Positions 23,288 to 64,000 of a DNA stretch of 64,000 bases are shown here, one piece after another; positions within the stretch are counted from its first letter, which is position 1; every line of letters starts with the position of its first letter. This DNA is from Bacilli bacterium (GTDB taxonomy: Bacteria; Bacillota_I; Bacilli_A; RF39; UBA660): assembly GCA_016283075.1 (NCBI GenBank), contig JAEEMF010000018.1, forward strand, positions 2,445 through 66,444, read 5' to 3'. The position numbers and the translations under genes are program-made. The notes under the pieces are model-generated. The model saw only the letters and a program-made list of their open reading frames with translations. It had not been told where the DNA came from and ran no database searches.

Positions 23288-23318
23288 AATTTCCTCCCTT
23301 TTTAAGGCTATATAAATA

Positions 23319-23348
23319 ATAGTTGCGACTACTACGAGCCGCAACTAT
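23319..23348 (-). terminator. hairpin between the 23351 and 21956 genes (weak terminator or attenuator)
   Basis: ATAGTTGCG...CGCAACTAT, a 9-bp stem with a 12-nt loop, right after the stop at 23351. The T-run is poor. Confidence 0.35.
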
Positions 23349-25048: not shown

Positions 25049-25177
25049 ACACATATCCCCCTCAATTTCAGGTTATTATAACACTTTTTGGCATTTTGTC
25101 AAACTGATTAGGGCACACCAAAAATCTATTTTCATTAACAATAAAATTATATCATTATATATATATAAATGTCAAAG

Positions 25178-32519: not shown

Positions 32520-32586
32520 ATTCTCACCTTAGCCCGTAGTATCTCAAGTAGTTTATTATTGTAATACAAAGTATCTTTTATATCAA

Positions 32587-32609
32587 GAAAAAAAGAAGGA
32601 TTTCCTTCT
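32587..32609 (-). terminator. rho-independent terminator after A2
   Basis: AGAAGGA-TT-TCCTTCT plus T7 on the minus strand. Confidence 0.7.
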
Positions 32610-32611
32610 TT

Positions 32612-38720: not shown

Positions 38721-38788
38721 AAAGTCCCCCAATTTATAAAAGATTTAATATGCGGTTTATTATAATACATTATTAATATTAAGGCAAA

Positions 38789-38815
38789 TTAAAAAAGATA
38801 GAAATATTCTATCTT
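38789..38815 (-). terminator. rho-independent terminator after the kinase-like gene
   Basis: AAGATAGAA-ATA-TTCTATCTT plus a T-run on the minus strand, overlapping the TAG stop. Confidence 0.65.
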
Positions 38816-39627
38816 TTAACTCCATATTCTTTTAAGAAGCCCTTTCTTTTATAATTAATATAATCATAGAAATCAAGAGCTCTAGTATAATCTTCACCAA
38901 TTGTATTTTTATTAAATGAATAATCATCAAATATATTAGTAATTATTTCTCCAAAATCGTTATCTAATGTATCAAATACTATTTCTTTAAATTCAGGATT
39001 TTCCTTTATAAAAGGTATTACTTCATCTACATCTTTTAAAGGATTATTTATTTTATCAAAACCATATGGGAAGCAAGATTCATAATCATAAACAGGTGCT
39101 AAACTTATTTTACCAGTACTCTTTTCTCTTGCTATTTGAACATTTACACCTGCTCTATCTTCCTGGCCCATAGCAAAATCTAGGGCTAATAATTTATAGT
39201 ATTCAGTCATAAATTCTTTTTTATTACTATCACTTATGCACATTTTAAGTACTTCATCTAGCATAAACATTGTGTATTTAATATCTTTACCAAGTTTTAA
39301 AAACTGATATCTTTTATCACTTCTAAAGTCTTTTGAGGCAATACCTAGTATTCCACCTCTTACTGCTACTTTATATTCTACTGTAGGAAGCTTAATTCTT
39401 TTAGCTAAATAGGAACCAAATAGTTCATGATATAAAGAATGATACTGTTTTAAACTAGATTCTTCTTTAAAGAAGTAGTAATCACCATTATGTTTTTCAA
39501 TCATTTCAACATATTTCTTACTAGTATTTGTATATGGATAAGCATATACTTTTTCTTTTTCAGAAAATGGTATTTCATCAAAAGTAATTACTTCTGTTTT
39601 ATCAGTAATTATTGATTCTAGAATCAT
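38809..39627 (-). CDS. HipA / PI3-4-kinase-like putative kinase (paralog of 5491..6312)
   Basis: GQEDRAGVNVQIA and LAPVYDY motifs. The ATG at 39627 has a perfect GAGGAGG RBS; the track start at 39642 is GTG. Lies 11 nt after the YolD-like stop. Confidence 0.5.
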   Translation of the reverse strand: MILESIITDKTEVITFDEIPFSEKEKVYAYPYTNTSKKYVEMIEKHNGDYYFFKEESSLKQYHSLYHELFGSYLAKRIKLPTVEYKVAVRGGILGIASKDFRSDKRYQFLKLGKDIKYTMFMLDEVLKMCISDSNKKEFMTEYYKLLALDFAMGQEDRAGVNVQIAREKSTGKISLAPVYDYESCFPYGFDKINNPLKDVDEVIPFIKENPEFKEIVFDTLDNDFGEIITNIFDDYSFNKNTIGEDYTRALDFYDYINYKRKGFLKEYGVKR

Positions 39628-39638
39628 AATAAACCTCC

Positions 39639-40073
39639 TCACATAAATATAATGATGTTTATTATGTCATTTATTTTAATTTTTTTCAAGTTACTTAGTA
39701 TAACTAATTTAGAAATATCATCTATCTTTTTAACAGAATCTTTTACTGTTAGGTATGCTCCTCCCTCTTTATATCTATCTTTTTCAAAGTAAGTAATACT
39801 TACTAGTGGAAACTCTTTTAAATGCTCTTTAATATAAAGAAGTTTTTCATTTATAACACTTTTTTCATCTTCAGATAAATTTAGTTTTTCACTAGTAAGT
39901 CTAGATGTTTCTTCTACTAGTTCTTCATATCCGGTAAGTGCTGCAAAAGGAGCAAACTGAGCAGCTCTTTTATAAGTACTCATTCTAGGATGATTTTTTG
40001 GATCAAAGTGTTTTATATCAATAATATCACTATACTTACGCCTTGTGGCCGCCAATTTCTCTGTTTCGTTCAA
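39639..40073 (-). CDS. YolD-like protein
   Basis: KRAAQFAPFAALTGYEE motif typical of YolD-like partners of Y-family polymerases. TTG start with a GAAGGAGG RBS inside the polymerase 3' end. Confidence 0.65.
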   Translation of the reverse strand: MNETEKLAATRRKYSDIIDIKHFDPKNHPRMSTYKRAAQFAPFAALTGYEELVEETSRLTSEKLNLSEDEKSVINEKLLYIKEHLKEFPLVSITYFEKDRYKEGGAYLTVKDSVKKIDDISKLVILSNLKKIKINDIINIIIFM

Positions 40074-46953: not shown

Positions 46954-46977
46954 ACAAAAAAGAGACTTTCGTCTCTT
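46954..46977 (-). terminator. rho-independent terminator ending the glycine-rich gene array
   Basis: AAGAGAC-TTTC-GTCTCTT plus a T-run on the minus strand, abutting the stop at 46977. Confidence 0.7.
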
Positions 46978-48152
46978 TAAACACCTAGAAAAGTAATTTT
47001 TATGGAACCATCGCCTTCTTTAGGGCATTTACTTATTGCATTAACACTATGACCATTGGGACAGGTAGAAGGATTCCCTTCTTCTGGGTTAGTATAAACG
47101 GATATTGTTTTTGTTTGAGTTGCTGAAGAAGAGGTACAATTATAACAGTACATAGCCTTGGTAACGCTTGGTGTAGACATTAATTTTGAAGAAGCGATAT
47201 AGGAAGAACCTCCTCCGCCTCCAGAACCATAGTCATTACCAGAACCTCCTCCATAGAAGCCGCCTCCGCCTCCAGCTCCAGCCCAACCATCATTTGCGAC
47301 ATCACCAGCATCTCCGCCCTTGCCAAAATTGCCTACAAATCCACCTCTTGTATCTTGAGCTAAAGCAGTACCACCAGAAATTTGAGTACCACCTCCGCCT
47401 CCTGTTGCAGGAGGATTTCCACCGCCTGTTTGATTATGACCTTTTGTACCGGAGATACCTCCGCCATCACCTCCATAATGACCAGTTCTCCAGTATCCGG
47501 CTCCTCCGCCACCAGCGGCAACAATTAATATATCATCCGATATATAATAATCAGTATTTAAAATTCCTTTATAAGATTCGAGTGATGCTAATTCACCTTG
47601 GATAAATGAAACGGAAGTAGCTCCTCCACCACCGGCACCGTATCCACCATCATCACTACTATTTAGTTTCCCATATCCACAGGCTTTACCTCCACCATTG
47701 AAACCTCCACCATATGGTGCTTCTAAATAATAACTTGTTATATCTGCCGGTTTACCACCAACATTAACATATAAAACATCATCTTCTTCAAGGCTTACTA
47801 CACCGACAGCATAAGCACCATATCCTCCGGAAGCACCATTAGCACCTCCTCCTTGAGCACCCCATACCTCTATTTGATATAATCCATCGCATCTACTTGT
47901 AAATTTATCACTAATAGTTTCAGTTCTTTCATATACTACGTCACCGGGACGATAAGGACATCCAAACACACACTGTCTAGTTACATCGTATAAATCATCT
48001 AAAGCATCTTTAGTATTATCTACATTCCATTCTGTATCTGTAGGAGTATATCCTACATCACTTGCTATATATGAGTATGCAAAAACAGCGCTTATACTAA
48101 TAAACGATACTAATATCAAGAAAATTATTTTTGATTTAAATATTTTCTTCAC
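46977..48152 (-). CDS. secreted glycine-rich protein, ALK/LTK-GRD-like (Gly_rich) domain (G1, subtype I)
   Basis: GTG start with an AGGAG RBS. Signal peptide ...SAVFA|YSY and N-module YIASDVGYTPTDTEWNVDNTKDALDDLY. Motifs IEVWGAQGGG, VAAGGGG, GGGGGFYGGG, GGGGGSSYI; C-terminus GDGSIKITFLG. Confidence 0.75.
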   Translation of the reverse strand: MKKIFKSKIIFLILVSFISISAVFAYSYIASDVGYTPTDTEWNVDNTKDALDDLYDVTRQCVFGCPYRPGDVVYERTETISDKFTSRCDGLYQIEVWGAQGGGANGASGGYGAYAVGVVSLEEDDVLYVNVGGKPADITSYYLEAPYGGGFNGGGKACGYGKLNSSDDGGYGAGGGGATSVSFIQGELASLESYKGILNTDYYISDDILIVAAGGGGAGYWRTGHYGGDGGGISGTKGHNQTGGGNPPATGGGGGTQISGGTALAQDTRGGFVGNFGKGGDAGDVANDGWAGAGGGGGFYGGGSGNDYGSGGGGGSSYIASSKLMSTPSVTKAMYCYNCTSSSATQTKTISVYTNPEEGNPSTCPNGHSVNAISKCPKEGDGSIKITFLGV

Positions 48153-48167
48153 GCTGCATACTCCTAT

Positions 48168-49349
48168 CTATTCTATCCCTAAATAAGTAATCTTAGCATA
48201 TCCATTTCCAGTATTACCATTCATTGTTGCAGTACTAGCATAGTTTGGCATTCCCGATACTGTTGTAGCTTTAACAGTTGACCAGCTATATCCTGCTCCA
48301 TCTATCATAACAGTATTAGTAAACGATTTACTGCTATAATGTACACTACATCCATCATTAGATGTTGGATTAGTATTACATCCAGATATTTTTATAGCGC
48401 GAGGATTTGAAATTGAATTCTCGGCTATTGCTACACATCCAGCGTGGCCAGATATATATGATGAACCGCCTCCGCCGCCAAATGAGTAACCGCCTTGGCC
48501 ACCACCTCCGCCGTAGTAGCCTCCGCCGCCTCCGCCGCCGCTATACCATCCACTACTTATATCAGAAGCATTTCCACCTATACCAAATATTCCAGGATTA
48601 GTATTACTACAATATCCAGAACCACATCCTGAAGCAGTACCACCTGATATTTGAGTACCACCTGTTGCTAAAGCAAGATTAGCAGATGCTTGTCTTATAT
48701 CTTTAACACCGCTATAACCAGTAAGACCACCAGCAGCACCACCATTACCACTACCACTAGCAGCAGCTTCGCCACCTAATGCTCCGCCTCCACCACCAGC
48801 TACCATTATTCTATCTTCTAAAGCATTTCTCATAAATCGAACATCTGTAGCACCACCACCAGCACCACCTGTTCCTTTATAGGGATTAGTTGAAGTAAAT
48901 GTTTGACCTCCGCCATTATATCCTGCTGCTACTGTTGTTGGTTTTCCGCCGATATAGATATATATAGTTTGTCCTCTATTAAAGCTAATATCACCTTTAA
49001 CATAAGCACCTTTTCCACCAATACCTACTTGACTATCTCCACCTTGGGCTCCCCAAAGTTCTATACGATAATTTCCTTTACAAGGTATATTAAATACTTT
49101 TCCAGTACCTGTATATGTACTTTCAAACACTATGTCATATGCATTATAAGGACAACTAAAATCACAATGAGTTGCTTTATCATATAAGGATTCTAAACCT
49201 TGATCAACATTTTCTACTTCCCATTCATTATCTATAGGAGTAAATCCTATTTCTTCTGCTATATAAGAGTATGCTAAAGCAACACTTGTACTAAAAACAA
49301 GCGCACCAAGTATTACGAAAAATAATTTTGATTTAAAAATATTTTTCAT
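48168..49349 (-). CDS. secreted glycine-rich protein, Gly_rich-like domain (G2, subtype II)
   Basis: Same N-module. Motifs IELWGAQGGD, MVAGGGGG, GGGGGGGYYGGGGG, GGGGGSSYISGHAGCVAI; C-terminus GNGYAKITYLG. Confidence 0.75.
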   Translation of the reverse strand: MKNIFKSKLFFVILGALVFSTSVALAYSYIAEEIGFTPIDNEWEVENVDQGLESLYDKATHCDFSCPYNAYDIVFESTYTGTGKVFNIPCKGNYRIELWGAQGGDSQVGIGGKGAYVKGDISFNRGQTIYIYIGGKPTTVAAGYNGGGQTFTSTNPYKGTGGAGGGATDVRFMRNALEDRIMVAGGGGGALGGEAAASGSGNGGAAGGLTGYSGVKDIRQASANLALATGGTQISGGTASGCGSGYCSNTNPGIFGIGGNASDISSGWYSGGGGGGGYYGGGGGQGGYSFGGGGGSSYISGHAGCVAIAENSISNPRAIKISGCNTNPTSNDGCSVHYSSKSFTNTVMIDGAGYSWSTVKATTVSGMPNYASTATMNGNTGNGYAKITYLGIE

Positions 49350-49372
49350 GTTGCATACTCCTTCTATTTTTA

Positions 49373-50446
49373 TTAATTCTTACCTAAATAAATAATTTTT
49401 ACAGCTCCACTTCCAGATTTAGCACAATTACTAACTGCTATACTGCTATATCCATCAGGACAGTTAACACTATCTTTATTACTTCCTGTTGTTGAAATTG
49501 TTTTAGTAGCCGGTTCACTTGACTCTGTACATCCATAGCAGTACATTACTGCATCATGAAGACCAGAGTTACCGATATATCCGGAACCACCACCTCCACC
49601 AGAGTGAATTCCGCATCCTCCGCCGTAGAAGCCTCCTCCTCCAGATACTCTCATATAAGAGCCATATGAAGAGCTAGCATTACATCCTACACCAAATGTA
49701 GGAGCAGTAAAGCTTGAGTAAGAAGTTGATCCAGAGGTTCCTGCTTCAAGCTGTGTTCCACCAGTACCTGGTTTTCTATCAGTATTATTACTTCCTGTTC
49801 CACTTCCACCAGATGTACCACCACCTGATCCACCAGTACCATTTGTATTACCAGATCCAGAAGCAGAACCACCTCCACCACCAGCAACAATTAAAAGTTT
49901 GTCAGTATTAGAGGCATATTCAAAGAGTAATCCAGTTCCAATTAACTGAGTTGCAATATGAGTAGCTCCTCCTCCAGCTGAGCCTATATATCCGCCAGAC
50001 TGAATACTTGATCTACCTCCACCATTATATCCGCCATTACCAGAAGTACTACCAGATCCACCAACAACCACATAAAGTTTATCAAAACGATTTAATTCAA
50101 CAATACCAACTGAATATCCACCATATCCACCATTATAAGAATCACTAGCATCACCACCTGATGCACCCCATGCTTCTATCTTATAATGACCAAAATAAGG
50201 TGCAACAAATTCAACAACATCGCCTGAAGGTCCATATCTCCAGTCATGATTAATATAGTCACTATAAGTACCTATTTCTCCATATAAATAATCAAGTGCC
50301 TCTTTGGTATTTTCTACATCCCAGTCATCTTCTTCTGGAGTAAATCCTACTTCTTGTGCCAAATAAGAGTATGCTAAAACACTTAGTGCTAAACCTAAGC
50401 AAATACCAACTATAAGTATTGTTAAATCTCTTAAGCGTTTTTTCAT
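49373..50446 (-). CDS. secreted glycine-rich protein, Gly_rich-like domain (G3, subtype I)
   Basis: Motifs IEAWGASGGD, IVAGGGGG, GGGGFYGGG, GGGGGSGYIG, MYCYGCTESS; C-terminus GSGAVKIIYLG. Confidence 0.75.
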   Translation of the reverse strand: MKKRLRDLTILIVGICLGLALSVLAYSYLAQEVGFTPEEDDWDVENTKEALDYLYGEIGTYSDYINHDWRYGPSGDVVEFVAPYFGHYKIEAWGASGGDASDSYNGGYGGYSVGIVELNRFDKLYVVVGGSGSTSGNGGYNGGGRSSIQSGGYIGSAGGGATHIATQLIGTGLLFEYASNTDKLLIVAGGGGGSASGSGNTNGTGGSGGGTSGGSGTGSNNTDRKPGTGGTQLEAGTSGSTSYSSFTAPTFGVGCNASSSYGSYMRVSGGGGFYGGGCGIHSGGGGGSGYIGNSGLHDAVMYCYGCTESSEPATKTISTTGSNKDSVNCPDGYSSIAVSNCAKSGSGAVKIIYLGKN

Positions 50447-50462
50447 ACTTTATTCCTTTCTA
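50344..50462 (-). repeat. near-identical about 119-bp 5' segment shared with 51641..51759 (RBS plus first about 34 codons of G3 and G4)
   Basis: By-eye alignment shows only about 6 mismatches, whereas the rest of G3 and G4 belong to different subtypes. Confidence 0.8.
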
Positions 50463-51743
50463 CTGTCTGCCAAGATAAGTTATTCTTGCATATCCATCTC
50501 CTGTGTTACCTGTCATTGATGATAATGAACTATGACTTGGCATTCCTGTTACAGTTGATGCTTTAGCAGAAGTCCATTCATAGCCTTTTCCATCAACCAT
50601 TTTTGTATTCGTAAAATATAATCCACTATAATGAATACTACATTCATCACTTGATGTTGGATTAGATGAACATGACGATATTTTAACTTCACGTGGTTCA
50701 CTAGTTGAACCACTTTTTATTGCTACACAACCAGAGTGACCTGATATAAAAGAAGAACCTCCTCCGGCTGCTTTCCAAACACCGGCTCCTCCACCGTAAT
50801 AGCCTCCGCCTCCGCCACCTTGAGAGATGTCAGATCTAGAAGGATTTGTTATTGTAGCACCTTTACCAAATTTACCTGGATAAGTATTAGTAAGGCTAGT
50901 ACTTTGCCAGTCATGTACACTAGTACCACCAGAACTTTGCCCTCCTGATATTTGAGTACCACCTGTTGGAGTTACAGTTGAGAATCCTCCAGTACTAGCT
51001 ACATAAGCGGCGTAAGCGGTTAATCCTCCAGCTGATCCTCCGTCAATTATTGAATAGTTGCTAGCAGTAGCATAATTTTGATGCATACCACCGCCTCCTC
51101 CAGCAACCATAATTCTAGAGTTTAGTCCTATATCTGAATCCCAAGCAAGTTGTCCTGATGTTGGAGTAGTACCAAAATATCTAATATCGGTAGCACCTCC
51201 ACCACTTGATATTTGTCTATAATATCCAGCACTTTCTCTTAAATATCCATCGGCGCCACCATTGTAACCACCTGTTGCAGTTCCAACACCAGCCGAATAT
51301 CTTTGAACACCTTTTCCACCTACAAAAACATATAATTTTATTGTTGGGTCTAATGATATTTCACCTTTGGTATAACCACCTTTACCACCTACAGCATTAC
51401 CGTTTAAACCGTCATTTGATAAATCTTCTCCATCTCCTCCGGATGCTCCCCATAGTTCAATTCTATAGTCACCATCACAAGGTGGTTCAAATAAATCTCC
51501 AAATCCTAAATAACCACTTTCATAAACTACATCTCCTGGAACATATCTACAACTAAAATCACATGATTTAGCTACATCGCGAAGATCATCTATTGCATCT
51601 TTTGTATTATCTACATTCCATTCTGTATCAGTAGGAGAATATCCTACTTCTTGAGCTAAATAAGAGTATGCTAAAACACTTAGAGTTAAACCTAAGCAAA
51701 TACCAACTATAAATATTGTTAAATCTCTTAAGCGTTTTTTCAT
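50460..51743 (-). CDS. secreted glycine-rich protein, Gly_rich-like domain (G4, subtype II)
   Basis: Motifs IELWGASGGD, MVAGGGGG, GGGGGGYYGGG, GGGSSFISGHSGCVAI; C-terminus GDGYARITYLG. Confidence 0.75.
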   Translation of the reverse strand: MKKRLRDLTIFIVGICLGLTLSVLAYSYLAQEVGYSPTDTEWNVDNTKDAIDDLRDVAKSCDFSCRYVPGDVVYESGYLGFGDLFEPPCDGDYRIELWGASGGDGEDLSNDGLNGNAVGGKGGYTKGEISLDPTIKLYVFVGGKGVQRYSAGVGTATGGYNGGADGYLRESAGYYRQISSGGGATDIRYFGTTPTSGQLAWDSDIGLNSRIMVAGGGGGMHQNYATASNYSIIDGGSAGGLTAYAAYVASTGGFSTVTPTGGTQISGGQSSGGTSVHDWQSTSLTNTYPGKFGKGATITNPSRSDISQGGGGGGYYGGGAGVWKAAGGGSSFISGHSGCVAIKSGSTSEPREVKISSCSSNPTSSDECSIHYSGLYFTNTKMVDGKGYEWTSAKASTVTGMPSHSSLSSMTGNTGDGYARITYLGRQ

Positions 51744-51759
51744 ACTTTATTCCTTTCTA
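51641..51759 (-). repeat. partner copy of repeat 50344..50462
   Basis: Same alignment: ...ATCCTACTTCTTG..AAATAAGAGTATGCTAAAACACTTAG...CTCTTAAGCGTTTTTTCATACTTTATTCCTTTCTA. Confidence 0.8.
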
Positions 51760-52272
51760 TTAGTTAAAATTATTTTTCACAAAATTCAAGTGAGACCATA
51801 CCCCAGTATTATTTCCTGTAGCTCTAATTGTAATTGATACTTGCTGACCTTTTTCTAAATTTATAATTGTATTTTCAATAAATCCCCAAGTATTTACACT
51901 TCTATTTGTATGGTTAACACCATCTACTTTAATAGTCCAAGATGAACTAGCCATAGCTGAACCAGCAGCTCTAACCCCATAACTAATAATAATAGTTCCT
52001 TTTGTTGTTGCTGTATATGAGGCAGAACATGATGGATTATTTTGACTAGCTCCATAAAAACATCCACCAACTGTTTTTATCTCAACGTTCTCATTAGCTA
52101 TTCTATATAAATCATCTAAAGCTTCTTTTGAATCTTCGACATCCCACTCCAAGTCAGTAGGAGTAAACCCAACATCCTGTGCAAAATAAGAGTATGCAAA
52201 AACAGCACTTATACTACATACAAGTACTCCAAGCATAAAGAAAAACAATCTACTTCTAAATATTTTCTTCAT
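51760..52272 (-). CDS. secreted protein with the array's shared N-module but a non-glycine-rich beta-rich C-domain
   Basis: MKKIFRSRLFFFMLGVLVCSISAVFA|YSYFAQDVGFTPTDLEWDVEDSKEALDDLY, followed by an about 110-aa domain without Gly runs. By homology with its neighbours, the second ATG (52272) is the start. Confidence 0.7.
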   Translation of the reverse strand: MKKIFRSRLFFFMLGVLVCSISAVFAYSYFAQDVGFTPTDLEWDVEDSKEALDDLYRIANENVEIKTVGGCFYGASQNNPSCSASYTATTKGTIIISYGVRAAGSAMASSSWTIKVDGVNHTNRSVNTWGFIENTIINLEKGQQVSITIRATGNNTGVWSHLNFVKNNFN

Positions 52273-52290
52273 ACGCATACTCTTTTCTAT

Positions 52291-53448
52291 TTATTCACCT
52301 AAATAGGTTATTCTTGCATATCCAGCACCGCTTTTAGCACACATGCTTACTGGACTATTACTATATCCACTTGAACAGTTACTATTTCTTTCATCTTCGT
52401 GTGTTGTTATTCCATATGTTGATACTGTATAAGTTGATAAATCACTACTTTCAGTGCAGTTATAACAGTACATTTTATTTACTATATTATTTGCTTCATT
52501 TTGTATAAGACGGTTACTTCCTATATAACCAGATCCTCCACCTGCTCCAAGTCCACTAGATGAGTACCCACCGTAGAAGCCTCCGCCTCCGCCAGCTTCA
52601 CCATAGTAGTTCATCCATCCGCCTTGACCAAATGTTCCAGCATTAAAGTATGAACCTGTTCTTGTATCTGCAACTTGTAATCCACCATATCCGCCGGCAG
52701 GGCTATAGGTTCCGCAAGATCCTTTATTATAGTCGTAAGCGTCTACTCCGTTTACGCCTCCGCCGTGTCCGCCAGAACCATAACACACATATCTATTGCT
52801 ATTGTTGTAGTAACCGGAGCCTCCACCACCACCAGCAACAATTAGTAGTTTTCCTGTACTAACATGTGCTGATAGGTTTTTAAGTTCTCCGGAAACTAAA
52901 GCAAAACTAGTTGCTCCTCCACCAGAACCATAACATTCACCATTTGCACCACTTCCGTCAGATGCTCTACCTTTACCACCGCCATTATATCCTCCATCAA
53001 CTGGGGTATTATTTTTAGTAGCAGTAAGTCCTTGCCCTCCAACATTTACATAAATAGAGGTCCCTTCTTCTATCTCCATAGTTCCTGTAGAATATCCACC
53101 ATATCCTCCTGGTTTAGAAGCACAGTCAGAGTCTCCTCCTTGTGCTCCCCAGGCTTCTAGTTTATAAGTTCCTGTACATTCCGGATTAAATACTTGCTGA
53201 GCACCAGTACTTCCTCCTTCAAAAACGATATCACCATTAGAATAAGGACATGTTACTCTACAACCACTTGTTATATCATTTAAATCATTTAAAGCCTGAC
53301 TTACATTTTGAACGTTCCACTCAGTATCATTTGATGTAAATCCTAAATTTATAGATGCATAATCATATGCTAAAACGGCACTTATCATACTAAACATAAG
53401 TGCTCCAAGAATAAAGAAAAATATTCTCGATTTTAGCATTTTTTTCAT
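52291..53448 (-). CDS. secreted glycine-rich protein, Gly_rich-like domain (G5, subtype I)
   Basis: Motifs LEAWGAQGGD, IVAGGGGG, GGGGGFYGGY, GAGGGSGYIG, MYCYNCTESS; C-terminus GAGYARITYLG. Confidence 0.75.
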   Translation of the reverse strand: MKKMLKSRIFFFILGALMFSMISAVLAYDYASINLGFTSNDTEWNVQNVSQALNDLNDITSGCRVTCPYSNGDIVFEGGSTGAQQVFNPECTGTYKLEAWGAQGGDSDCASKPGGYGGYSTGTMEIEEGTSIYVNVGGQGLTATKNNTPVDGGYNGGGKGRASDGSGANGECYGSGGGATSFALVSGELKNLSAHVSTGKLLIVAGGGGGSGYYNNSNRYVCYGSGGHGGGVNGVDAYDYNKGSCGTYSPAGGYGGLQVADTRTGSYFNAGTFGQGGWMNYYGEAGGGGGFYGGYSSSGLGAGGGSGYIGSNRLIQNEANNIVNKMYCYNCTESSDLSTYTVSTYGITTHEDERNSNCSSGYSNSPVSMCAKSGAGYARITYLGE

Positions 53449-53461
53449 ATGCATATCCTTT

Positions 53462-54622
53462 CTAATTTAAAGAAGTATAGGTAATACGAATATAACCATT
53501 ACCTGCTTTAGCGCATCCACTTATAGGAAATGAATCATATCCACTAGTACAGCTTTCATTTCTTTCAGCAGTATGAGTACTTGTTCCATGCGTTGAAACT
53601 GTGTATGTTCTAAGTTCACTACTTTCTAGGCAGTCATAACAAAACATTTTATTTAATATGTTATTACTAATATTTTGAACAAGAAGCTGACTTCCAATAT
53701 ACCCAGAACCACCACCTGATCCTAAAGCTCCAGATGAGTATCCGCCGTAAAAGCCTCCGCCTCCGCCAGACTGTCCAAAGTTATCTAGCCATCCACCTTG
53801 TCCAAAAGAACCAGGTCCCATATAAGTAGCAGTCCTAGTATCAGCAACCTGCATTCCACCATATCCACCAGATGATGCTACAGCGTTACAACTATTTTTA
53901 GCCCAGTCATAAGCGTCTACTCCGTTTACTCCTCCGCCGTGTCCGCCAGATCCATAACATCTATATGAGCCCATAGAATGGTAGTAGGAAGATCCTCCGC
54001 CACCACCAGCTACAACTAATATTTTTCCATCTTCTATATGTTCGGATAATGTATTTAAAGTACCAGAATTTAAGGCTACTGAAGTAGCACCTCCTCCTGA
54101 TCCAGAACACTCACCTTGTGAACCTAGACCATCAGAAATTCTACCTTTACCACCACCATTATATCCGCCATCTACTGGACTATTATTATTAGTAGCAGTA
54201 TTTCCTTTTCCACCAACATTTATAAATAAAGGAGTTCCTACATTTATATTGGCATATACTACTGAATATCCTCCATATCCACCTGGTCTTGAATCACAAG
54301 ATGCATCTCCACCTTGCGCACCCCATACTTCAATTTTATATGTTCCACTACACAGAGGAGTAAAGGTGTCTTGCTCTCCTATATAGTTTGAAGTATATAC
54401 TACTGAATCATGTTCATAAGGGCATCCAAATTCACATGTATTAGTTACACTGTATAAATCATCTAAGGCTTCAGTTACATTTTCAACTGGCCACTCTTCG
54501 TCATCAGGAGTAAAGCTAAAACTAGACGATACATAATCATATGCTAAAACAGCACTTATACTACCAAAAATAAGTGCTCCAAGGACAAAGAAAAAAGTTC
54601 TTGATTCTAGCATTTTCCTCAT
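53462..54622 (-). CDS. secreted glycine-rich protein, Gly_rich-like domain (G6, subtype I)
   Basis: Start MRKMLESRTFFF at 54622 has an AGGGAG RBS; the track start at 54682 is an extension. Motifs IEVWGAQGGD, VVAGGGGG, GGGGGFYGGY, GSGGGSGYIG; C-terminus GNGYIRITY. Confidence 0.75.
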   Translation of the reverse strand: MRKMLESRTFFFVLGALIFGSISAVLAYDYVSSSFSFTPDDEEWPVENVTEALDDLYSVTNTCEFGCPYEHDSVVYTSNYIGEQDTFTPLCSGTYKIEVWGAQGGDASCDSRPGGYGGYSVVYANINVGTPLFINVGGKGNTATNNNSPVDGGYNGGGKGRISDGLGSQGECSGSGGGATSVALNSGTLNTLSEHIEDGKILVVAGGGGGSSYYHSMGSYRCYGSGGHGGGVNGVDAYDWAKNSCNAVASSGGYGGMQVADTRTATYMGPGSFGQGGWLDNFGQSGGGGGFYGGYSSGALGSGGGSGYIGSQLLVQNISNNILNKMFCYDCLESSELRTYTVSTHGTSTHTAERNESCTSGYDSFPISGCAKAGNGYIRITYTSLN

Positions 54623-54670
54623 AAGCCTACACTCCCTATTGTATATATTAATTATATCATATAAATCCAT

Positions 54671-54700
54671 AACAAAAAACATATAGTTGACTATATGTTT
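54671..54700 (-). terminator. terminator-like hairpin in the leader of the glycine-rich array
   Basis: AAACATATAG-TTGA-CTATATGTTT (10-bp arms) followed by TTTGTT on the minus strand, about 50 nt upstream of the G6 start. Confidence 0.45.
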
Positions 54701-58160: not shown

Positions 58161-59165
58161 TTATTTGTCAACTATTTTATAATTTTCTAAAGCAGTTACT
58201 GCTTCATCAAATGTTTTAACAGGTATTATATCTATATCAAGTTTATATTTTCTTTTTACTTTTACAGCTTCATCATAGTTTTCACCATAAGGTACTAAAA
58301 ATATTCCTGCTTTAGATTTAGCAGCACCTAATATTTTATATTTAACTCCTCCTATTTCACCTACTGAGCCATCTTCATAAATAGCACCAGTACCTGCAAT
58401 AGTAAGGCCTTTTGTAATATCTTCTTTAATAAGTTTATTATAAATTGTTAAAGCATTTATAAGACCACCAGAAGATCCTGATTCATTATTTTTAAAATCA
58501 AATTCACATTTAGGATTAGTTTCATACTTAATAACATCTATAGAAAGTATTCCTATTTTAGGTTTACCTTCATAGTCTATAAGTGTTGCTGTTCTAGTTA
58601 GTTTTTTAGTGCCACTTATTACTTCATAAGTAACTTTATCTCCTATTTTATAAGTAGCCATTAAATTACTTAGTTCTTCAGAAGAACCTATTTTTACACC
58701 ATTTGCTGATTTAATAATATCTCCTATTTCAAAATCTGATTTAGTATCCTTATATACAAAACCTACTACAGCATCTTTAGAAGCTACTTTAACTTCTAAA
58801 CCAGCTTTTTCATAAGCTACTTTAACAGCATACTTATTACCAGCTTTTAAAAGTACTTTACCAAGTCCTATTTCTTCATCTTGAGTTATTCCCCCATTAT
58901 CTTCAGGTTTTACTATATCCCACTTGCTATTTATTAAGGCATATAAGTAAAAGATAGGAGTAGCTCTTAGTTGTGACACATAAGTCATATTAAATGTTCC
59001 TTTACTACTATACTCATTTTCTATAGTAATACGCTCTGTTGTATCAATCATTCTTCCTGGAGCTTCTATGTAACAAGGTAAACTATATGTTGAAATAAAT
59101 ATTGTTACTAAAATGGTAATTATATATAACCAGTTTTCTTTTAAAACTCTTTTAAGTTTTTTCAT
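58161..59165 (-). CDS. YlbL/SepM-type membrane serine protease (PDZ + Lon-like S16 domain)
   Basis: TM anchor, PDZ-like GDIIKSANGVKI, Lon-like ESGSSGGLINALTIYNKL...TGAIYEDGSVGEIGGVKYKILGAAKSKAGIFLVP. Start MKKLKRVLKEN at 59165. Confidence 0.8.
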   Translation of the reverse strand: MKKLKRVLKENWLYIITILVTIFISTYSLPCYIEAPGRMIDTTERITIENEYSSKGTFNMTYVSQLRATPIFYLYALINSKWDIVKPEDNGGITQDEEIGLGKVLLKAGNKYAVKVAYEKAGLEVKVASKDAVVGFVYKDTKSDFEIGDIIKSANGVKIGSSEELSNLMATYKIGDKVTYEVISGTKKLTRTATLIDYEGKPKIGILSIDVIKYETNPKCEFDFKNNESGSSGGLINALTIYNKLIKEDITKGLTIAGTGAIYEDGSVGEIGGVKYKILGAAKSKAGIFLVPYGENYDEAVKVKRKYKLDIDIIPVKTFDEAVTALENYKIVDK

Positions 59166-59186
59166 TATATCACCACTTTCATTATA

Positions 59187-59212
59187 ACAAAAAAGTGGAG
59201 TTACCTCCACTT
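59187..59212 (-). terminator. rho-independent terminator after the pilin gene pair
   Basis: AAGTGGAG-TTAC-CTCCACTT plus a T-run on the minus strand. Confidence 0.7.
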
Positions 59213-59214
59213 TC

Positions 59215-60837
59215 TTAACCAAATTTAACACTTCTTAAAGATATTTTTACATATCCATTTCCATCATGACCTATTTCATATGTTGAATGGTCAGGACTTA
59301 TAAATGTTTTTGTTCCATCAAATAATTCACAACTTGCGTTAGCGCAGTAACCAGAGCCTCCTCCGCCACCTCCGTAGCGAGAACCACCTCCGCCGCCATA
59401 GTAGCCGCCTCCACCGCCACCAGCTGCGTACGTTACTCCATCACTTGTTGTATAAGATGCACCACTACCTCCTTGAAGAAGAGCACCTGCTGTTGGAAGT
59501 GATGTAATAGTTCCTGATGAAGTAGTTGTATATGTTGCTGCTGCACCACCAGATGAGCTTGTTCCAGCTCCTCCTAAATAGCTATCAGAAGAACATGTTC
59601 CAGTAGTACCAGAAGCGCCTCCTCCAGCACCACCATTACAAGTAAAGGATGAGTCATTACGAGATCCACCTCCACCGCCTCCTCCAGCGACAATTATTCT
59701 AGAGTTAACGGCTGATGAACCAAGCCTAACATCACTTGCTCCTCCACCTGATGAAGCTAAATAGGTAGACGAAGTTCCACTATTTCCTCCTCCGTTATAT
59801 CCGCCTATAGCAGCAGTTCCTACAGTACCAGTTACACCTTGTCCTCCAACTGTTACATATAGTTTATCAGAAGTAGATAATGCCATAAAATCTTTAGCAT
59901 ATCCACCTTTACCTCTCATCATTGAAGAGCCTCCACCTGATGCTCCCCATACTTCTATTTCATAAGTACCACTTACTGGTACATTAAACTGTTCTACTTT
60001 TCCTGAGAAGGAATAATTATAAACAGATTCAATTACTTTAACAGTTCTTGATACTTGTGACATTACTTCATTATTTATATTATAAATTGTATAAGTAAGT
60101 GTATATTCTTCTCCAGCTGTATTACCTACATAACCAGTTACATTTACAAGTGGATTATCACTTTTTAAATCAACTTCACTTGTTATAATATCACCTGATT
60201 TAGAATCTACTACATAATATCCTGGATCAACATAATCTACATCAACGTATTTAAAGTCATCTCCACCTATTAAGTATAGTCTTTTTTCAGAATCTACTAT
60301 ATCTGTTAAATTAACATTTGCTACGGTAACAGCCTTACTATTATATTGATATACTACATTAAATCCAAAGTTTTCTTGTTCAAATAAAGTATGATAAATT
60401 GGTACTTCTACATTAAAAATACTATTTTTCTTACTCTTTTCTCCATTAGTATCAAGTATTTTTTCATAGTATACTGCTACATTACCAAAAGTACTTCCGG
60501 ATAGTAAGTTAGTAGCAATACCATCATATTCAATAAATTTACCTTTACGATCTACAATTAACTTCTTAGTCTTTTCACTACTAGATTCTTTATAAATAAA
60601 GTTAACACATATATCGTAACCAGTACATCTTTCAATTTTAGTTATATCTAAATTTAATAAATCATCATTTATATTTTTAGCAAGTATAGCTTGTTTAGTA
60701 AGTAATTTAGTTTTAATACCATTTTCAATATATAGATTTCTTACAACAATAATTATTTCAGTTAAAAGAAGTACTATAACTGTTGTAAGTGATACAGTAA
60801 TAAGTAATTCTACTACAGTAAATCCATTCTTTTTCAT
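59215..60837 (-). CDS. modular type IV pilin-like protein: prepilin N-terminus + Ig-like (DUF5011-like) domain + ALK/LTK-GRD-like glycine-rich domain
   Basis: MKKNG|FTVVELLITVSLTTVIVLLL class III signal. RLYLIGGDDFKYVDVDYVDPGYYVVDSKSGDIITSEV...GEEYTLTYTIYN...RTVKV fits the DUF5011 pattern. Gly-rich motifs are YEIEVWGASGGG, IVAGGGGGGG, GGGGGGYYGGGGG; C-terminus GNGYVKISL. Confidence 0.75.
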   Translation of the reverse strand: MKKNGFTVVELLITVSLTTVIVLLLTEIIIVVRNLYIENGIKTKLLTKQAILAKNINDDLLNLDITKIERCTGYDICVNFIYKESSSEKTKKLIVDRKGKFIEYDGIATNLLSGSTFGNVAVYYEKILDTNGEKSKKNSIFNVEVPIYHTLFEQENFGFNVVYQYNSKAVTVANVNLTDIVDSEKRLYLIGGDDFKYVDVDYVDPGYYVVDSKSGDIITSEVDLKSDNPLVNVTGYVGNTAGEEYTLTYTIYNINNEVMSQVSRTVKVIESVYNYSFSGKVEQFNVPVSGTYEIEVWGASGGGSSMMRGKGGYAKDFMALSTSDKLYVTVGGQGVTGTVGTAAIGGYNGGGNSGTSSTYLASSGGGASDVRLGSSAVNSRIIVAGGGGGGGSRNDSSFTCNGGAGGGASGTTGTCSSDSYLGGAGTSSSGGAAATYTTTSSGTITSLPTAGALLQGGSGASYTTSDGVTYAAGGGGGGYYGGGGGSRYGGGGGGSGYCANASCELFDGTKTFISPDHSTYEIGHDGNGYVKISLRSVKFG

Positions 60838-60838
60838 A

Positions 60839-61810
60839 TTAATGAACCTCCCTATAGTAAAGGTTTGTTTCTCTTTGAGAATCAGTAAGTGTTACTGTAT
60901 CTTCTTCAGCATCTATAAACATATATCCTGATACATTTTTACGATACTGTTCTGTATAAATAGTATTACCACAGAAGTTACTTATAAAAGTATCAGGTGC
61001 TACTTCTACTTCAGTATTTTCTATATAATGATGTATTATTAAACTTGATTCTTTTCTTTGATAAATAATACTTGCTTGATTATCTCCGCCATTTACTAAA
61101 GTAAAGTCTTCTTTAGTAAATCCGGATAAGTAATAACACTTATTATCACTTCTAGCATACATTTCCGTATATACTTTAGAACCACATGTATCTCTACCAT
61201 TATTTGGTTCATAAAGTTCAGTACCACTTGCTTGTTCAGCAGATGAATTAACACCTACATGATGTATTGTAAATGGAATAATATTTGTAACATTACATGA
61301 ATCAGCAAGTATAAATAAGAATCTATATCCATTAAGTACTTTTATACTTGAGTATGATCCATCATCAAATGATGCTATTAATCTATAGCCATCACTTTTA
61401 TCATAATTAATCTTTCTTATGTATTTATTAAAATCTTCACCTAAATCATTATTTTCTATTAAAGGAAATAAGTTTTCATTAGTAATAATAACTTTTTTAA
61501 TACCTAGTTTTTTAAATAATATTTCACAATAATCAAGTGAATCAAAGTATAAATTAGGGCAAGAAGTTAAGTCTATATAATCATTAGTTTTTAAGTATTC
61601 AGCCATTGCAGAATAGTTACTTGTTTCAACATATTTTTTAACATTATATAAGTTGTAAGAAGCACCTATTGCATTGTAAGAATAGCTTTCACTAAAGTTT
61701 GTATTAACATTTTTAAACTCAATATATAAGATAAGTAAGACACTTACAAGCATAGTTGCAACGATAAGTGTTTCCGTTAAAATAAACCCTTTTCTATTCA
61801 ATTTTTTCAT
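60839..61810 (-). CDS. type IV pilin-like protein with two C-terminal MucBP-like repeats
   Basis: MKKLNRKG|FILTETLIVATMLVSVLLILY class III signal. The C-terminal halves FTIHHVGV...YYLSGFTKEDFTLV...SIIYQRK and LIIHHYIEN...SGYMFIDAEEDTVTLT...NLYYRE resemble MucBP units. A 1-nt gap separates it from the next pilin gene. Confidence 0.6.
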   Translation of the reverse strand: MKKLNRKGFILTETLIVATMLVSVLLILYIEFKNVNTNFSESYSYNAIGASYNLYNVKKYVETSNYSAMAEYLKTNDYIDLTSCPNLYFDSLDYCEILFKKLGIKKVIITNENLFPLIENNDLGEDFNKYIRKINYDKSDGYRLIASFDDGSYSSIKVLNGYRFLFILADSCNVTNIIPFTIHHVGVNSSAEQASGTELYEPNNGRDTCGSKVYTEMYARSDNKCYYLSGFTKEDFTLVNGGDNQASIIYQRKESSLIIHHYIENTEVEVAPDTFISNFCGNTIYTEQYRKNVSGYMFIDAEEDTVTLTDSQRETNLYYREVH

Positions 61811-61898
61811 AAAACTTACCCTTTCGTATTGTTTTTATCCTAGAACTATTATATAATATAACTAGAATAAAAGTCTAGTCTAAAAGAGGATAAAGGGG

Positions 61899-63329
61899 AT
61901 GAATTTTTTTATGTTGCGAACATTTGATTTCGAAAAAATACCTATAGTAGAAATCGTTAACGATATATTACTTGACTCTGCAAAACGTGGCGCAAGTGAT
62001 ATTCACTTCGACCCTCAAGATGAAAATATGAAGGTAAGAATTCGTATCGATGGTTCACTTCAAAACTACTGTGAAGTTCCAAATTCTATTAAAAAGAATT
62101 TAACAACTCGTATAAAAATTATAGCTGGTATGAATATAACAGAATCAAGATTACCTCAAGATGGTGCTATCAAAACACAAATACAAGATACTGACCTAGA
62201 TCTCCGTGTTTCGGTACTTCCTATTAGTACAGGTGAAAAGATCGTTATCCGTATCCTTGACTATACAAAGAGTTTAAGTGGACTAGAACAATTAGATTTT
62301 AGTGAAGCAAATTATAAAAAATTATTATATATGATTGGTGTACCAAATGGTATTATCCTAGTAACCGGAGCTACTGGTTCTGGTAAATCTACAACAGTAT
62401 ACTCTATTCTTCAAAGATTAAATAAAGAAGATACAAACCTAATTACTGTAGAAGATCCAGTCGAAATGGATATAGCTGGTATTAACCAAGTTCAAGTTAA
62501 TAGTGAAATAGGACTTACATTTGCAGCAGCACTTCGTTCTATCTTACGTCAGGACCCTAACATTATAATGATCGGAGAAATTCGTGATACTGAAACTGCA
62601 AAGATAGCTGTTCGTGCTTCTATTACTGGACACTTAGTATTATCAACAATCCACACCAATAGTGCTTTAAATACTATTGAACGTTTACTAGATATGGATG
62701 TTGAAAGATACTTACTATCAAGTGCCTTAACTGGTATGATATCTCAAAAACTTGCTAGAAGACTATGTCCTCACTGCAAGAAGTTAAGACCAACTAATGA
62801 ATACGAAAAGAAATTATTTAAGAAAACACTTAATATGGATATAAATGAAGTTTATACAGCTGTTGGATGCGACAAATGTACAAATGGGTATACGGGACGT
62901 ATGGCAATACATGAAGTACTTGTTATTAATCAGGAAATTCGTGATGCTATATCTGCTAATACACCAAAAGAAAAACTTCGTGAATTAGTTTATAGTGGTG
63001 ATACTAAATCAATGCTTCAGGATGGTCTTGAAAAAGTTATTCAAGGACATTCAACTATTGAGGAAATCCTAAAACTAATCGAACTTGAAGATGACGATTC
63101 ATTAAGTGATGATGAAGATTTAAGAAAAGTACTTGAAAAATCTACAGCAGAAGTAAATGCTAGACCTCCAGTACAACAAGGTGTGCCTGCTGCTCAACCA
63201 CAAGTTATGCAGCAACCTACTCCAAATCCTGCTGGATTTACTCCAGGACCTGCGCTTAATCAAGCACCAGCTCCTACCCCAGCACCACAACCTGGTATAG
63301 CAGATTTACTTAATAAAGTACAACAATAA
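61899..63329 (+). CDS. type IV filament assembly ATPase (GspE/PilB/ComGA family) with Pro/Gln-rich C-terminal tail
   Basis: Walker A GATGSGKSTT, Asp box ITVEDPVE, Walker B NIIMIGEIRD, His box GHLVLSTIHTN, tetra-Cys CPHC...CDKC. The last 56 aa are low-complexity P/Q/A. Confidence 0.88.
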   Translation: MNFFMLRTFDFEKIPIVEIVNDILLDSAKRGASDIHFDPQDENMKVRIRIDGSLQNYCEVPNSIKKNLTTRIKIIAGMNITESRLPQDGAIKTQIQDTDLDLRVSVLPISTGEKIVIRILDYTKSLSGLEQLDFSEANYKKLLYMIGVPNGIILVTGATGSGKSTTVYSILQRLNKEDTNLITVEDPVEMDIAGINQVQVNSEIGLTFAAALRSILRQDPNIIMIGEIRDTETAKIAVRASITGHLVLSTIHTNSALNTIERLLDMDVERYLLSSALTGMISQKLARRLCPHCKKLRPTNEYEKKLFKKTLNMDINEVYTAVGCDKCTNGYTGRMAIHEVLVINQEIRDAISANTPKEKLRELVYSGDTKSMLQDGLEKVIQGHSTIEEILKLIELEDDDSLSDDEDLRKVLEKSTAEVNARPPVQQGVPAAQPQVMQQPTPNPAGFTPGPALNQAPAPTPAPQPGIADLLNKVQQ

Positions 63330-63332
63330 AGA

Positions 63333-63365
63333 AAAAGACTTGTAAGATAATCTTACAAGTTTTTA
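63333..63365. terminator. bidirectional rho-independent terminator
   Basis: ACTTGTAAGA-TAA-TCTTACAAGT with an A-run before and a T-run after, between convergent genes. Confidence 0.7.
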
Positions 63366-64000
63366 TTTAATATTTTCCCTGTATTTAAAATTGCTTTTAC
63401 ACGTTTTTCTAGTTCTTTTTGATGTTCAATCGCACTCTCATAGTCTCTTTTAAAACATACTTTACATTTTTCTTGTGCTTCATCTATTTCCTTTTGATAC
63501 CTTGATTTATAGTCTCTATTACATCTTATAAAATCTTCATCACCTAAAAATGATAAATCTAAAAGTACTGTACCTTGATCAACAGGTTCCAGATTAGTAT
63601 ACCAAATGTAATTTCTAATATCGGCATCTGGTTTAGTTAAATGATAAACTTTTTTCCCCGTGATAACATCATGTAATCCCTGTTCATCATCAACAGCATA
63701 TATTGGAACATCGTAATTAACGATACGTCGACGTAAACTATTATTACTATAGTAGAATACTCTTTGATCTTGGATAGTAACCTCATCACAATAATGCGAT
63801 TCCGGTGGCATATCATCAAAATAGTTAGGGATTTCATAATATCCTAGTGTAACCCTATAATATTGTTTACCATTTAAATCATTATAATAATAATTTCTTA
63901 ACTTATAAAAAACTCTATTTAATTCTTGATATTTTTGGTCTTGTCCATATCTATATAATTCTGTACATAAATATTTATATCCTTTTTTTAATAAAGAATC
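63353..64000 (-). CDS. hypothetical cytoplasmic protein, 5' end beyond window
   Basis: The frame of the 63353..63811 ORF stays open upstream to position 64000 (checked codon by codon), so the gene probably starts outside the window. Tyr/Asn-rich, no recognisable motif. Confidence 0.5.
   Translation of the reverse strand, partial: DSLLKKGYKYLCTELYRYGQDQKYQELNRVFYKLRNYYYNDLNGKQYYRVTLGYYEIPNYFDDMPPESHYCDEVTIQDQRVFYYSNNSLRRRIVNYDVPIYAVDDEQGLHDVITGKKVYHLTKPDADIRNYIWYTNLEPVDQGTVLLDLSFLGDEDFIRCNRDYKSRYQKEIDEAQEKCKVCFKRDYESAIEHQKELEKRVKAILNTGKILNKNL

Follow-up and report, generated by a model that had tools for sequence, protein, structure and literature searches.

The window analysed here is a 64,000-nucleotide stretch of contig JAEEMF010000018.1 from a Bacilli bacterium. 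At positions 59215–60837 of its minus strand it encodes a 540-residue modular prepilin, which we designate pilin 2. The product consists of a pilin module with a class III signal peptide, an immunoglobulin (Ig)-like domain and a C-terminal glycine-rich domain (GRD) of the type found in the receptor kinases ALK and LTK. In our reading, to which we assign a probability of about 0.8, pilin 2 is a modular type IV pilin and the GRD is the binding module on display. The GRD is one of several interchangeable cargoes carried by two conserved pilins, and this swappable cargo, with the GRD as its commonest form, is the most useful new element of the system. To our knowledge, the animal receptor kinases ALK and LTK are the only proteins in which the function of the GRD (PF12810) is known, and the many bacterial and phage homologues of this domain have no assigned role.

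Overall architecture of pilin 2

The pilin 2 gene is an uninterrupted 540-codon open reading frame (ORF) with an ATG start, and all of its parts lie on the minus strand. The class III signal peptide (60760–60837) starts with the leader MKKNG (60823–60837), and the N-terminus MKKNG|FTVVE has a predicted cleavage site between G5 and F6, a Glu at mature position +5 (E10) and a 21-residue hydrophobic tract, F6–T26. The pilin module comprises residues 1–172 (60322–60837), in which the α1 helix (residues 8–62) precedes a β-sheet head, according to an AlphaFold2 model and to bare orthologues that consist of this module only. The Ig-like spacer domain of the PF16403/DUF5011 type (residues ~185–270; 60028–60285) was located by PF16403 and Foldseek. 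The ALK/LTK-type GRD, with its TNF-like and poly-Gly parts, occupies residues 283–540 (59218–59991), based on PF12810, a family profile and Foldseek.

The AlphaFold2 model, built on a 30-sequence alignment, has a mean predicted local distance difference test (pLDDT) score of 86.5 and is divided into a helix (8–62), a β region (64–180), a β-sandwich (185–270) and a C-terminal domain (283–540). An earlier note on this DNA, made from the sequence alone, had described a 540-residue protein at this position with a prepilin signal, a pilin head, an Ig-like domain and a Gly-rich domain. The ORF, Pfam, AlphaFold2 and the homologues bear out that description. The four Gly-rich signatures that it quoted (YEIEVWGASGGG, IVAGGGGGGG, GGGGGGYYGGGGG and GNGYVKISL) are all present in the translation, and the span it gave for the Gly-rich domain, about 59215–60021, is right within ~10 codons. 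The GC content of the GRD part is 0.35 compared with about 0.27 in the surroundings, because of the Gly codons.

A homologue search covering 5.8 billion proteins yielded more than 50 full-length homologues with 99% query coverage and 37–98% identity, from ENA, Logan, NCBI and JGI assemblies. One of them is titled "glycine rich domain-containing protein [Bacilli bacterium]". When 30 full-length homologues were aligned, no breaks appeared at the pilin-Ig-GRD junctions. An independent contig (L003) has 95.4% DNA identity to positions 59104–64000 of the window, carries the same gene and spans the junction. The earlier note had raised the possibility of a chimeric assembly, which is ruled out by the full-length homologues in independent assemblies and by L003; these assemblies carry the intact fusion. 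With a continuous ORF and conserved junction columns as well, the probability that an assembly or gene-calling artefact joined a pilin gene to a GRD gene is practically negligible.

Glycine-rich and Ig-like domains

The PF12810 (ALK_LTK_GRD) model matches residues 289–534 with E = 3.1e-32 and 112.9 bits against a cutoff of 24.5. The match covers positions 7–242 of the 243 in the model and recurs in all 30 full-length homologues. A profile of the GRD family finds ALK and LTK in the PDB, together with SCD-2, the ALK homologue of C. elegans, at a best E value of 8e-9. In a Foldseek search, the top 21 PDB matches are all GRDs of ALK, LTK or SCD-2 (E from 1.8e-8 to 3e-5, probability 1.0), with template modelling (TM) scores of only 0.33–0.45. 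According to the titles of the PDB entries, the GRD of ALK and LTK is located in the extracellular ligand-binding region and is complexed with ALKAL/AUG. In the model of pilin 2, residues 283–540 contain long stretches of high pLDDT with neither helix nor strand, which would fit poly-Gly II (PGII) helices.

The GRD model also has 78 viral fold matches in BFVD at E ≤ 1e-3, the best with a root mean square deviation of 4.6 Å over 305 columns and 32% identity. A few of the matched proteins are named as virion structural, tail or tail-collar proteins. The fold is common in phage proteins.

The Ig-like domain is less clear in pilin 2 itself. PF16403 scores 15.4 bits on residues 201–268, short of its cutoff of 27 (E = 0.02), and 25 of the 30 homologues match the same model, with a best E value of 3.7e-12. 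In Foldseek searches, the middle domain matches the Ig-like chain 5fq7_H (BT2262) with TM scores of 0.70–0.72 and 2kpn, a Big_3 domain, with 0.58. The DUF5011-like domain of the earlier note thus falls below the gathering threshold in pilin 2 and is recovered in most of its homologues. The N_methyl model of prepilin N-termini behaves in a similar way, being below threshold in pilin 2 and found at the level of the family. Because the N_methyl and PF16403 scores are both sub-threshold, only the GRD is formally supported from the pilin 2 sequence alone.

Pilin module and prepilin signal

In the alignment of 30 homologues, F6, T7 and E10 are invariant, and position 5 is Gly in 28 sequences and Ala in two. 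N_methyl is found in 16 of the 30 at E ≤ 0.01 (best 1.5e-5), and the orthologues at two related loci (L008 and L040) pass its cutoff. Residues 1–172 were searched exhaustively with HMMER against 1.84 billion representatives, each standing for one 50%-identity cluster, and 480 relatives were found at E ≤ 1e-3, 205 of them at E ≤ 1e-10. The pattern G/A-F-xxx-E is present at the N-terminus in 145 of the 150 best family representatives.

The AlphaFold2 model gives an α1 helix of about 55 residues (8–62), followed by strands between residues 64 and 180, with pLDDT values of about 80–90. The hydrophobic tract, the helix and the predicted β head together correspond to the "lollipop" shape of pilins. 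The definition of this shape and of the class III signal is restated in PMC9934059, and the leader, tract and α1 of pilin 2 conform to it. The top three PDB matches of a profile of 23 pilin modules are type IV pilins, aligned at α1 only: two entries of Geobacter PilA-N (9egp with E = 4e-4 and 7tgg with E = 0.014) and one of Streptococcus sanguinis PilE1 (8pfb, E = 0.042). The claim of a canonical class III signal and a pilin-like head therefore agrees with the family-wide conservation of the prepilin motif, with these profile matches and with the predicted 55-residue N-terminal helix and β head.

Two-pilin operon and assembly machinery

Immediately upstream of pilin 2 lies the gene of a partner prepilin, pilin 1 (60839–61810, minus strand; 323 residues), whose N-terminus is MKKLNRKG|FILTE and whose pilin module bears a C-terminal extension of ~150 residues. 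A Pfam scan gave no match for pilin 1. Six aligned orthologues all share G8, F9 and E13, and the class III motif recurs across the loci. Pilin 1 is directly upstream of pilin 2 in 40 loci. The ATG of pilin 2 starts 1 nt past the TAA stop codon of pilin 1, so the two genes are probably translationally coupled; a Shine-Dalgarno sequence, GGGAGG, is located 8 nt 5' of this ATG. Pilin 1 and pilin 2 are co-transcribed, with pilin 2 as the second gene.

The pilin operon and the pilB gene are divergent, and the intergenic region between them (61811–61898) contains a promoter-like site, TAGACT-18-TATAAT (61848–61877, minus strand). It is the best such site, identified as a consensus match only, and the regional count of such sites is not above that of shuffled sequence. 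A hairpin followed by a U-run is located at the pilin 2 stop codon (59188–59217, minus strand). RNA folding gave a free energy of −16.8 kcal/mol with z = −4.8, and none of 200 shuffles folded equally well. The consensus terminator scan did not report this hairpin; judged by its predicted fold, it is likely to be the intrinsic terminator of the two-pilin operon. The next ORF on the minus strand, a SepM/YlbL-like PDZ + Lon_C protease (58161–59231), has a listed GTG start that overlaps the 3' end of pilin 2 and the hairpin; its true start is probably the ATG of "MKKLKRVLKENW" near 59166.

On the plus strand, positions 61899–63329 encode an assembly ATPase of the PilB/GspE family (476 residues; T2SSE, E = 1.7e-126). 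Its C-terminal ~55 codons form a low-complexity tail rich in Pro, Gln and Ala (ARPPVQQGVPAAQPQVMQQPTPNPAGFTPGPALNQAPAPTPAPQPG), outside the matches to T2SSE (13–391) and GspE/PilB (to ~392). The window end cuts the following gene, of which the 3' part is present (63353–64000, minus strand; 347 residues in full); it has no Pfam or NCBIfam match. In L003, the 347-residue gene is followed by PilD, a prepilin peptidase of the Peptidase_A24 family, and then by PilC, a T2SSF platform protein of 664 residues. PilC and/or PilD also adjoin the locus in L001, L004–L007, L010–L016, L021 and L029, and the PilB ATPase adjoins the pilin pair in 37 of 50 non-redundant loci. A type IV machinery thus accompanies the pilins, with PilB in the window and PilD and PilC adjacent in L003 and in syntenic loci of about 20 other species.

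The subtype of this machinery was examined with NCBIfam models. The ATPase scores 486 bits on GspE, 470 on PilB and 266 on ComGA (cutoff of ComGA, 300), all below the equivalog cutoffs. The platform protein scores 119 bits on ComGB against a cutoff of 240 and reaches no equivalog cutoff among GspF, PilC and ComGB. Both proteins score higher on GspE/PilB and GspF/PilC than on ComGA/ComGB. Because the ATPase and the platform protein remain below all equivalog cutoffs, no filament subtype was assigned. For the pilins, the NCBIfam Com models gave no match for pilin 2, and the match of pilin 1 to ComGD (E = 0.023) scores 15 bits where 70 are required. Membership in a Com pilus was considered and is not supported by these models, as their equivalog cutoffs are not reached.

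Three further features of these loci were observed. The 347-residue gene (63353–64000, minus strand; L003:6447–7490) is located between PilD and PilB in this lineage only, being absent from L001, L004 and the other loci. The platform protein (L003:3545–5539; PilC in L001 and L004–L016) has 560–830 residues, with a GspF/PilC core at residues ~262–661 and an N-terminal extension of ~260 residues. A gene of ~1 kb lies between the protease and pilin 2 in most related loci (DUF998 and Gate genes in L001) and is missing here.

Cargo exchange among related loci

One genome per GTDB species was scanned with the N-terminal module, which gave 49 loci. Nearly all of them belong to metagenome-assembled genomes (MAGs) of uncultured Bacilli, "Tenericutes" or "Mollicutes". 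Judged by isolate and record names (Ca. Pelethosoma, Ca. Coprosoma, Firmicutes CAG:822), many apparently come from the animal or human gut. A phmmer survey of the locus ORFs revealed a conserved block, (PilC-PilD)-<PilB-pilin 1-pilin 2-(~1 kb)-SepM/YlbL-like protease-MutS.

Among the 50 non-redundant loci, 27 have a bare pilin 2 (132–189 residues), 10 have one with a GRD and 12 have one with another extension. The corresponding numbers for pilin 1 are 21 bare (155–187 residues), two with a GRD and 16 with another extension. Where pilin 2 is bare, its sequence stops exactly at the strand "VYQYNS", equivalent to residue ~172 of the window protein. Therefore, the Ig-like domain and the GRD are appended to a complete pilin module, in agreement with the definition of a modular pilin (Raynaud 2021). 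Alternative cargoes occupy the same slot in orthologues. The cargo is Ig + GRD + F5/8-type-C in L012, DUF285 in L043 and fn3/Y_Y_Y in L040. On pilin 1, L049 has a GRD with two Ricin-B lectins and L021 has a GRD. The extension of the pilin 1 orthologue at L017:3431–4594 resembles, by eye, a lectin of the LamG/concanavalin-A type ("LYVNGEKIGEV…IYNRALSENEVQRNY"), which is the cargo type of S. sanguinis PilC.

Among the best 150 of the 480 relatives found with residues 1–172, 62 are bare, 32 carry a GRD, 54 have another extension and two are spurious giant repeat proteins. Of the 54 non-GRD extended relatives, 29 match N_methyl at E ≤ 1e-3 (best 7e-8), 14 PF16403, seven Flg_new and two Laminin_G_3; CBM_4_9, Sialidase_N, choline-binding repeats, DUF285 and Fib_succ_major were seen once each. 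Of the individual cargoes in this pilin family, the GRD is thus the commonest. The other cargoes (Flg_new, Laminin_G_3, CBM_4_9, Sialidase_N, choline-binding repeats, DUF285, F5/8C and RicinB) can be classed as adhesion or carbohydrate-binding types.

A third scaffold consists of canonical "KGFTLVELLAV" pilins that bear one or two GRDs (P0087, P0091, P0095, P0098 and P0100). The survey for pilin-Gly_rich fusions proposed earlier has thus found the GRD repeatedly, on pilin 2, pilin 1 and canonical pilin scaffolds. Another canonical pilin, P0120, matches PF12810 and has two WGAxGG signatures. It was considered to lie on the contig of the close relative; this was wrong, as it is on a separate contig in a housekeeping context. 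The giant proteins P0121 (5745 residues) and P0208 (2416 residues) were treated as spurious and YD-repeat-like. They match residues 77–124 of the pilin head 36 and 17 times, respectively, and the units of P0121 are YD-repeat-like ("KGKVTTYEYDGNN"), so these matches are probably compositional or short-motif similarity and not homology. Five other GRD proteins (P0053, P0079, P0097, P0102 and P0113) have pilin-like "KGF(A/V)xS…" N-termini that lack Glu+5 and one to three WGAxGG copies; from these termini, they may be Glu-less pilins of the cap type.

Secreted GRD paralogues

The window also contains an array of six proteins (46977–54682, minus strand), all of which match PF12810 (E from 1e-31 to 1e-43). 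They are 36–39% identical to the GRD of pilin 2 and 32–63% identical to each other, and have Sec-type N-termini and not class III signals. The earlier proposals that the C-terminal domain of pilin 2 belongs to the same family as the array proteins, and that this domain occurs both on a pilin and as secreted paralogues, were correct. The six array proteins and a 172-residue non-GRD protein (51760–52278) share a hydrophobic segment followed by "AYSYxAxxVGFTPxDxEWxVxN..ALDDLY". By eye, these "AYSY" N-termini resemble signals of the SipW/TasA/camelysin type, for which NCBIfam gave no support at E ≤ 0.1.

None of the other loci examined has a comparable array within 10 kb of the pilin genes, and MutS directly follows SepM in L001 and L004. 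The array, together with an ABC-2 transporter and a GNAT gene, therefore appears as an insertion between SepM and MutS in this genome. Any functional interplay between pilin 2 and the array is a matter of speculation.

Comparison with known pilins and GRDs

Modular pilins are an established category, comprising over 1,200 proteins in 264 architectures (Raynaud 2021, PMC8179133). Dataset S1 of that study includes IPR012902-PF12810 (two proteins), IPR012902-PF12810x3 (one) and IPR012902-IPR032179 (three), and its Dataset S2 includes one PilY1 with PF12810. The catalogued IPR012902-PF12810 architectures, three pilins and one PilY1-type protein, have the same combination of N_methyl and PF12810 as the present family. 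They differ in being table entries, without description, structure, locus analysis or function. Therefore, the view of the earlier note that no pilin with an ALK-GRD-type domain had been described does not hold for the tables, but holds in the sense that none of the entries has been characterised. Most members of the present family would be missed by such an N_methyl search because their N_methyl scores are in many cases sub-threshold.

The closest functional parallels are PilB (pilin + vWA) and PilC (pilin + concanavalin-A-like lectin) of S. sanguinis. Both are modular minor pilins, and models place PilB and the PilA-PilC complex at the tip of the pilus (PMC8179133; Shahin 2023, PMC9934059). 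Like pilin 2, they have a monoderm host, an N-terminal class III pilin module and a bulky C-terminal graft. A partner minor pilin is encoded alongside, and the predicted role of the cargo is adhesion, with display at the tip. In contrast, the cargo of pilin 2 is an Ig-like spacer with an ALK/LTK-type GRD and not a vWA or lectin domain, and no sequence relationship can be detected outside α1. The locus also differs in that two pilins are its only ones and a major pilin is not visible; neither PilT nor PilMNO was identified, and these were not specifically searched for.

The TG/GRD domain of ALK and LTK (PDB 7nx1, 7n00, 7lrz and 7lir) belongs to the same Pfam family as the GRD of pilin 2, with a near full-length match to the model. 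The bacterial domain differs in its low identity (17–21%) and TM scores (0.33–0.45), in being carried by a pilin and not by a receptor kinase, and in the lack of an EGF-like domain; nothing gives cause to expect a shared ligand. The GRD-like proteins of phage virions and tails (BFVD models) are similar in having a Gly-rich domain of the PGII type on a fibre or appendage, but their carrier is a tail fibre and not a pilin, and their functions are mostly unannotated. The polyglycine-rich adhesin gp38 of phage S16 is likened to the GRD of pilin 2 by analogy only.

The GRD pilin is thus an uncharacterised addition to the established modular pilins, and the kind of machinery is not new. For a pilus specialist, it is a natural extension of existing work and no surprise. 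The modular pilin concept is extended here from single examples to a locus-level pattern, in which a large, uncultured gut lineage appears to diversify its surface by cargo swaps on two conserved pilins. The grafting of the GRD on three pilin scaffolds, in the slot of lectins and adhesins, provides the first concrete functional context for a bacterial GRD and gives it a testable handle, as an extracellular module presented on a filament.

Proposed mechanism and alternative explanations

We propose that the prepilin inserts into the membrane via its hydrophobic N-terminal tract. The A24 prepilin peptidase (PilD) of the locus, which in the nearest relative is encoded just beyond the equivalent of the window end, would remove the leader MKKNG and probably methylate Phe6. 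The PilB ATPase and the PilC platform would then polymerise the subunit into a filament through α1, with the Glu at mature +5 pairing with the N-terminus of the neighbouring subunit. The pilin module (1–172) would serve as the carrier, the Ig-like domain as a spacer that holds the GRD off the filament, and the C-terminal GRD would face outward and serve in ligand binding or adhesion. Because of the 368-residue cargo and the S. sanguinis precedent, pilin 2 most likely sits at the filament tip or is incorporated sparsely as a minor pilin, and it may act together with the co-transcribed pilin 1. A binding role of the GRD is suggested because its slot otherwise holds lectin or adhesin modules, because the GRD of ALK and LTK is located in the extracellular ligand-binding region, and because the fold occurs in phage proteins. 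The link between the Gly_rich family and a type IV filament with an outward-facing domain, as put forward in the earlier note, is supported by the prepilin motif, AlphaFold2, the profile and the synteny of PilB, PilD and PilC.

Several observations weigh against this reading of pilin 2. Its own N-terminus reaches 16.6 bits on PF07963 (N_methyl), against a cutoff of 21.2 (E = 0.006, residues 2–25), and has no match to NCBIfam TIGR02532. Foldseek with the N-terminal 283 residues found S. sanguinis PilB (7ba2) as the only pilin, with E = 4e-3 and a low TM score, and Ig-like matches dominate the result; the pilin reading rests instead on secondary structure, motif conservation and the sequence profile. 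The locus has no visible gene for a small major pilin. Both pilins of the locus keep Glu+5, so neither is marked as a Glu-less cap subunit. The GRD is internal and followed by lectin domains in L012 and L049, where it could be a scaffold and not a binding surface. The host organism is uncultured, and a literature search found no paper that describes or tests a bacterial GRD or a GRD pilin beyond the listing in Dataset S1.

The sub-threshold N_methyl score, the missing TIGR02532 match and the weak fold match of the head to solved pilins would also suit a plain, unprocessed membrane anchor of a surface protein that is merely encoded beside pilus genes. We regard this as very unlikely, because the invariance of F, T and E+5 and the near-invariance of G−1 across hundreds of diverged homologues would be unexpected for a simple anchor. 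The strict synteny with PilB and the frequent adjacency of PilD and PilC also speak against it, as do the predicted "lollipop" of a 55-residue α1 and a β head and the many relatives that pass the N_methyl model. The subunit might otherwise belong to a short pseudopilus, Com-like or like that of the type II secretion system, which forms no long adhesive pili and pushes cargo through the wall or serves DNA uptake or secretion, with the GRD being structural or wall-spanning. The minimal machinery would fit such a structure, with PilB, PilC, PilD and two pilins in the loci examined (no search specific for PilT or PilMNO was made), as would the lack of a major pilin in the locus, the faint similarity of pilin 1 to ComGD/ComGC (E = 0.02–0.09) and the internal position of the GRD in some homologues. 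We consider it unlikely, since the ATPase and platform score better on GspE/PilB and GspF/PilC than on ComGA/ComGB, albeit below every equivalog cutoff, and interchangeable cargoes of the lectin and adhesin type fit surface binding. In addition, no ComEA or ComEC genes were noticed in the loci examined, in which no specific search for them was made.

A bolder extension of the modular type IV pilin reading is that, in uncultured gut Bacilli with small genomes, PilC-PilD-PilB and exactly two pilins constitute a type IV filament of a distinct and minimal "display" kind. A dedicated small major pilin would be absent from this filament, and both of its subunits would carry swappable binding modules. 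The GRD would be the principal adhesin of the lineage, and the six secreted array GRDs would be free or exchangeable versions of the same module. We put this forward tentatively and regard it as rather doubtful.

Other genes in the window

Four large ORFs (998, 1059, 985 and 1060 residues) are arranged as two tandem pairs at 26369–38732 on the minus strand and have no Pfam match at E ≤ 1e-3. The same applies to the neighbouring ORFs at 21956–23344, 23351–25054 and 38809–39642.

Three tandem genes on the minus strand (12418–14619, 14630–16723 and 16803–18890) encode proteins of 695–733 residues with canonical prepilin N-termini (KGFTLIELLAIILILGII). They score 29–30 bits on N_methyl, above its threshold, and contain BspA-type LRR_5 leucine-rich repeats (LRR) with E values from 1e-70 to 1e-90. 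The three proteins are 38–43% identical to each other, and TIGR02532 passes for 14630–16723, the sole paralogue scored. They are three further modular pilins, of a pilin-LRR type, in the same genome.

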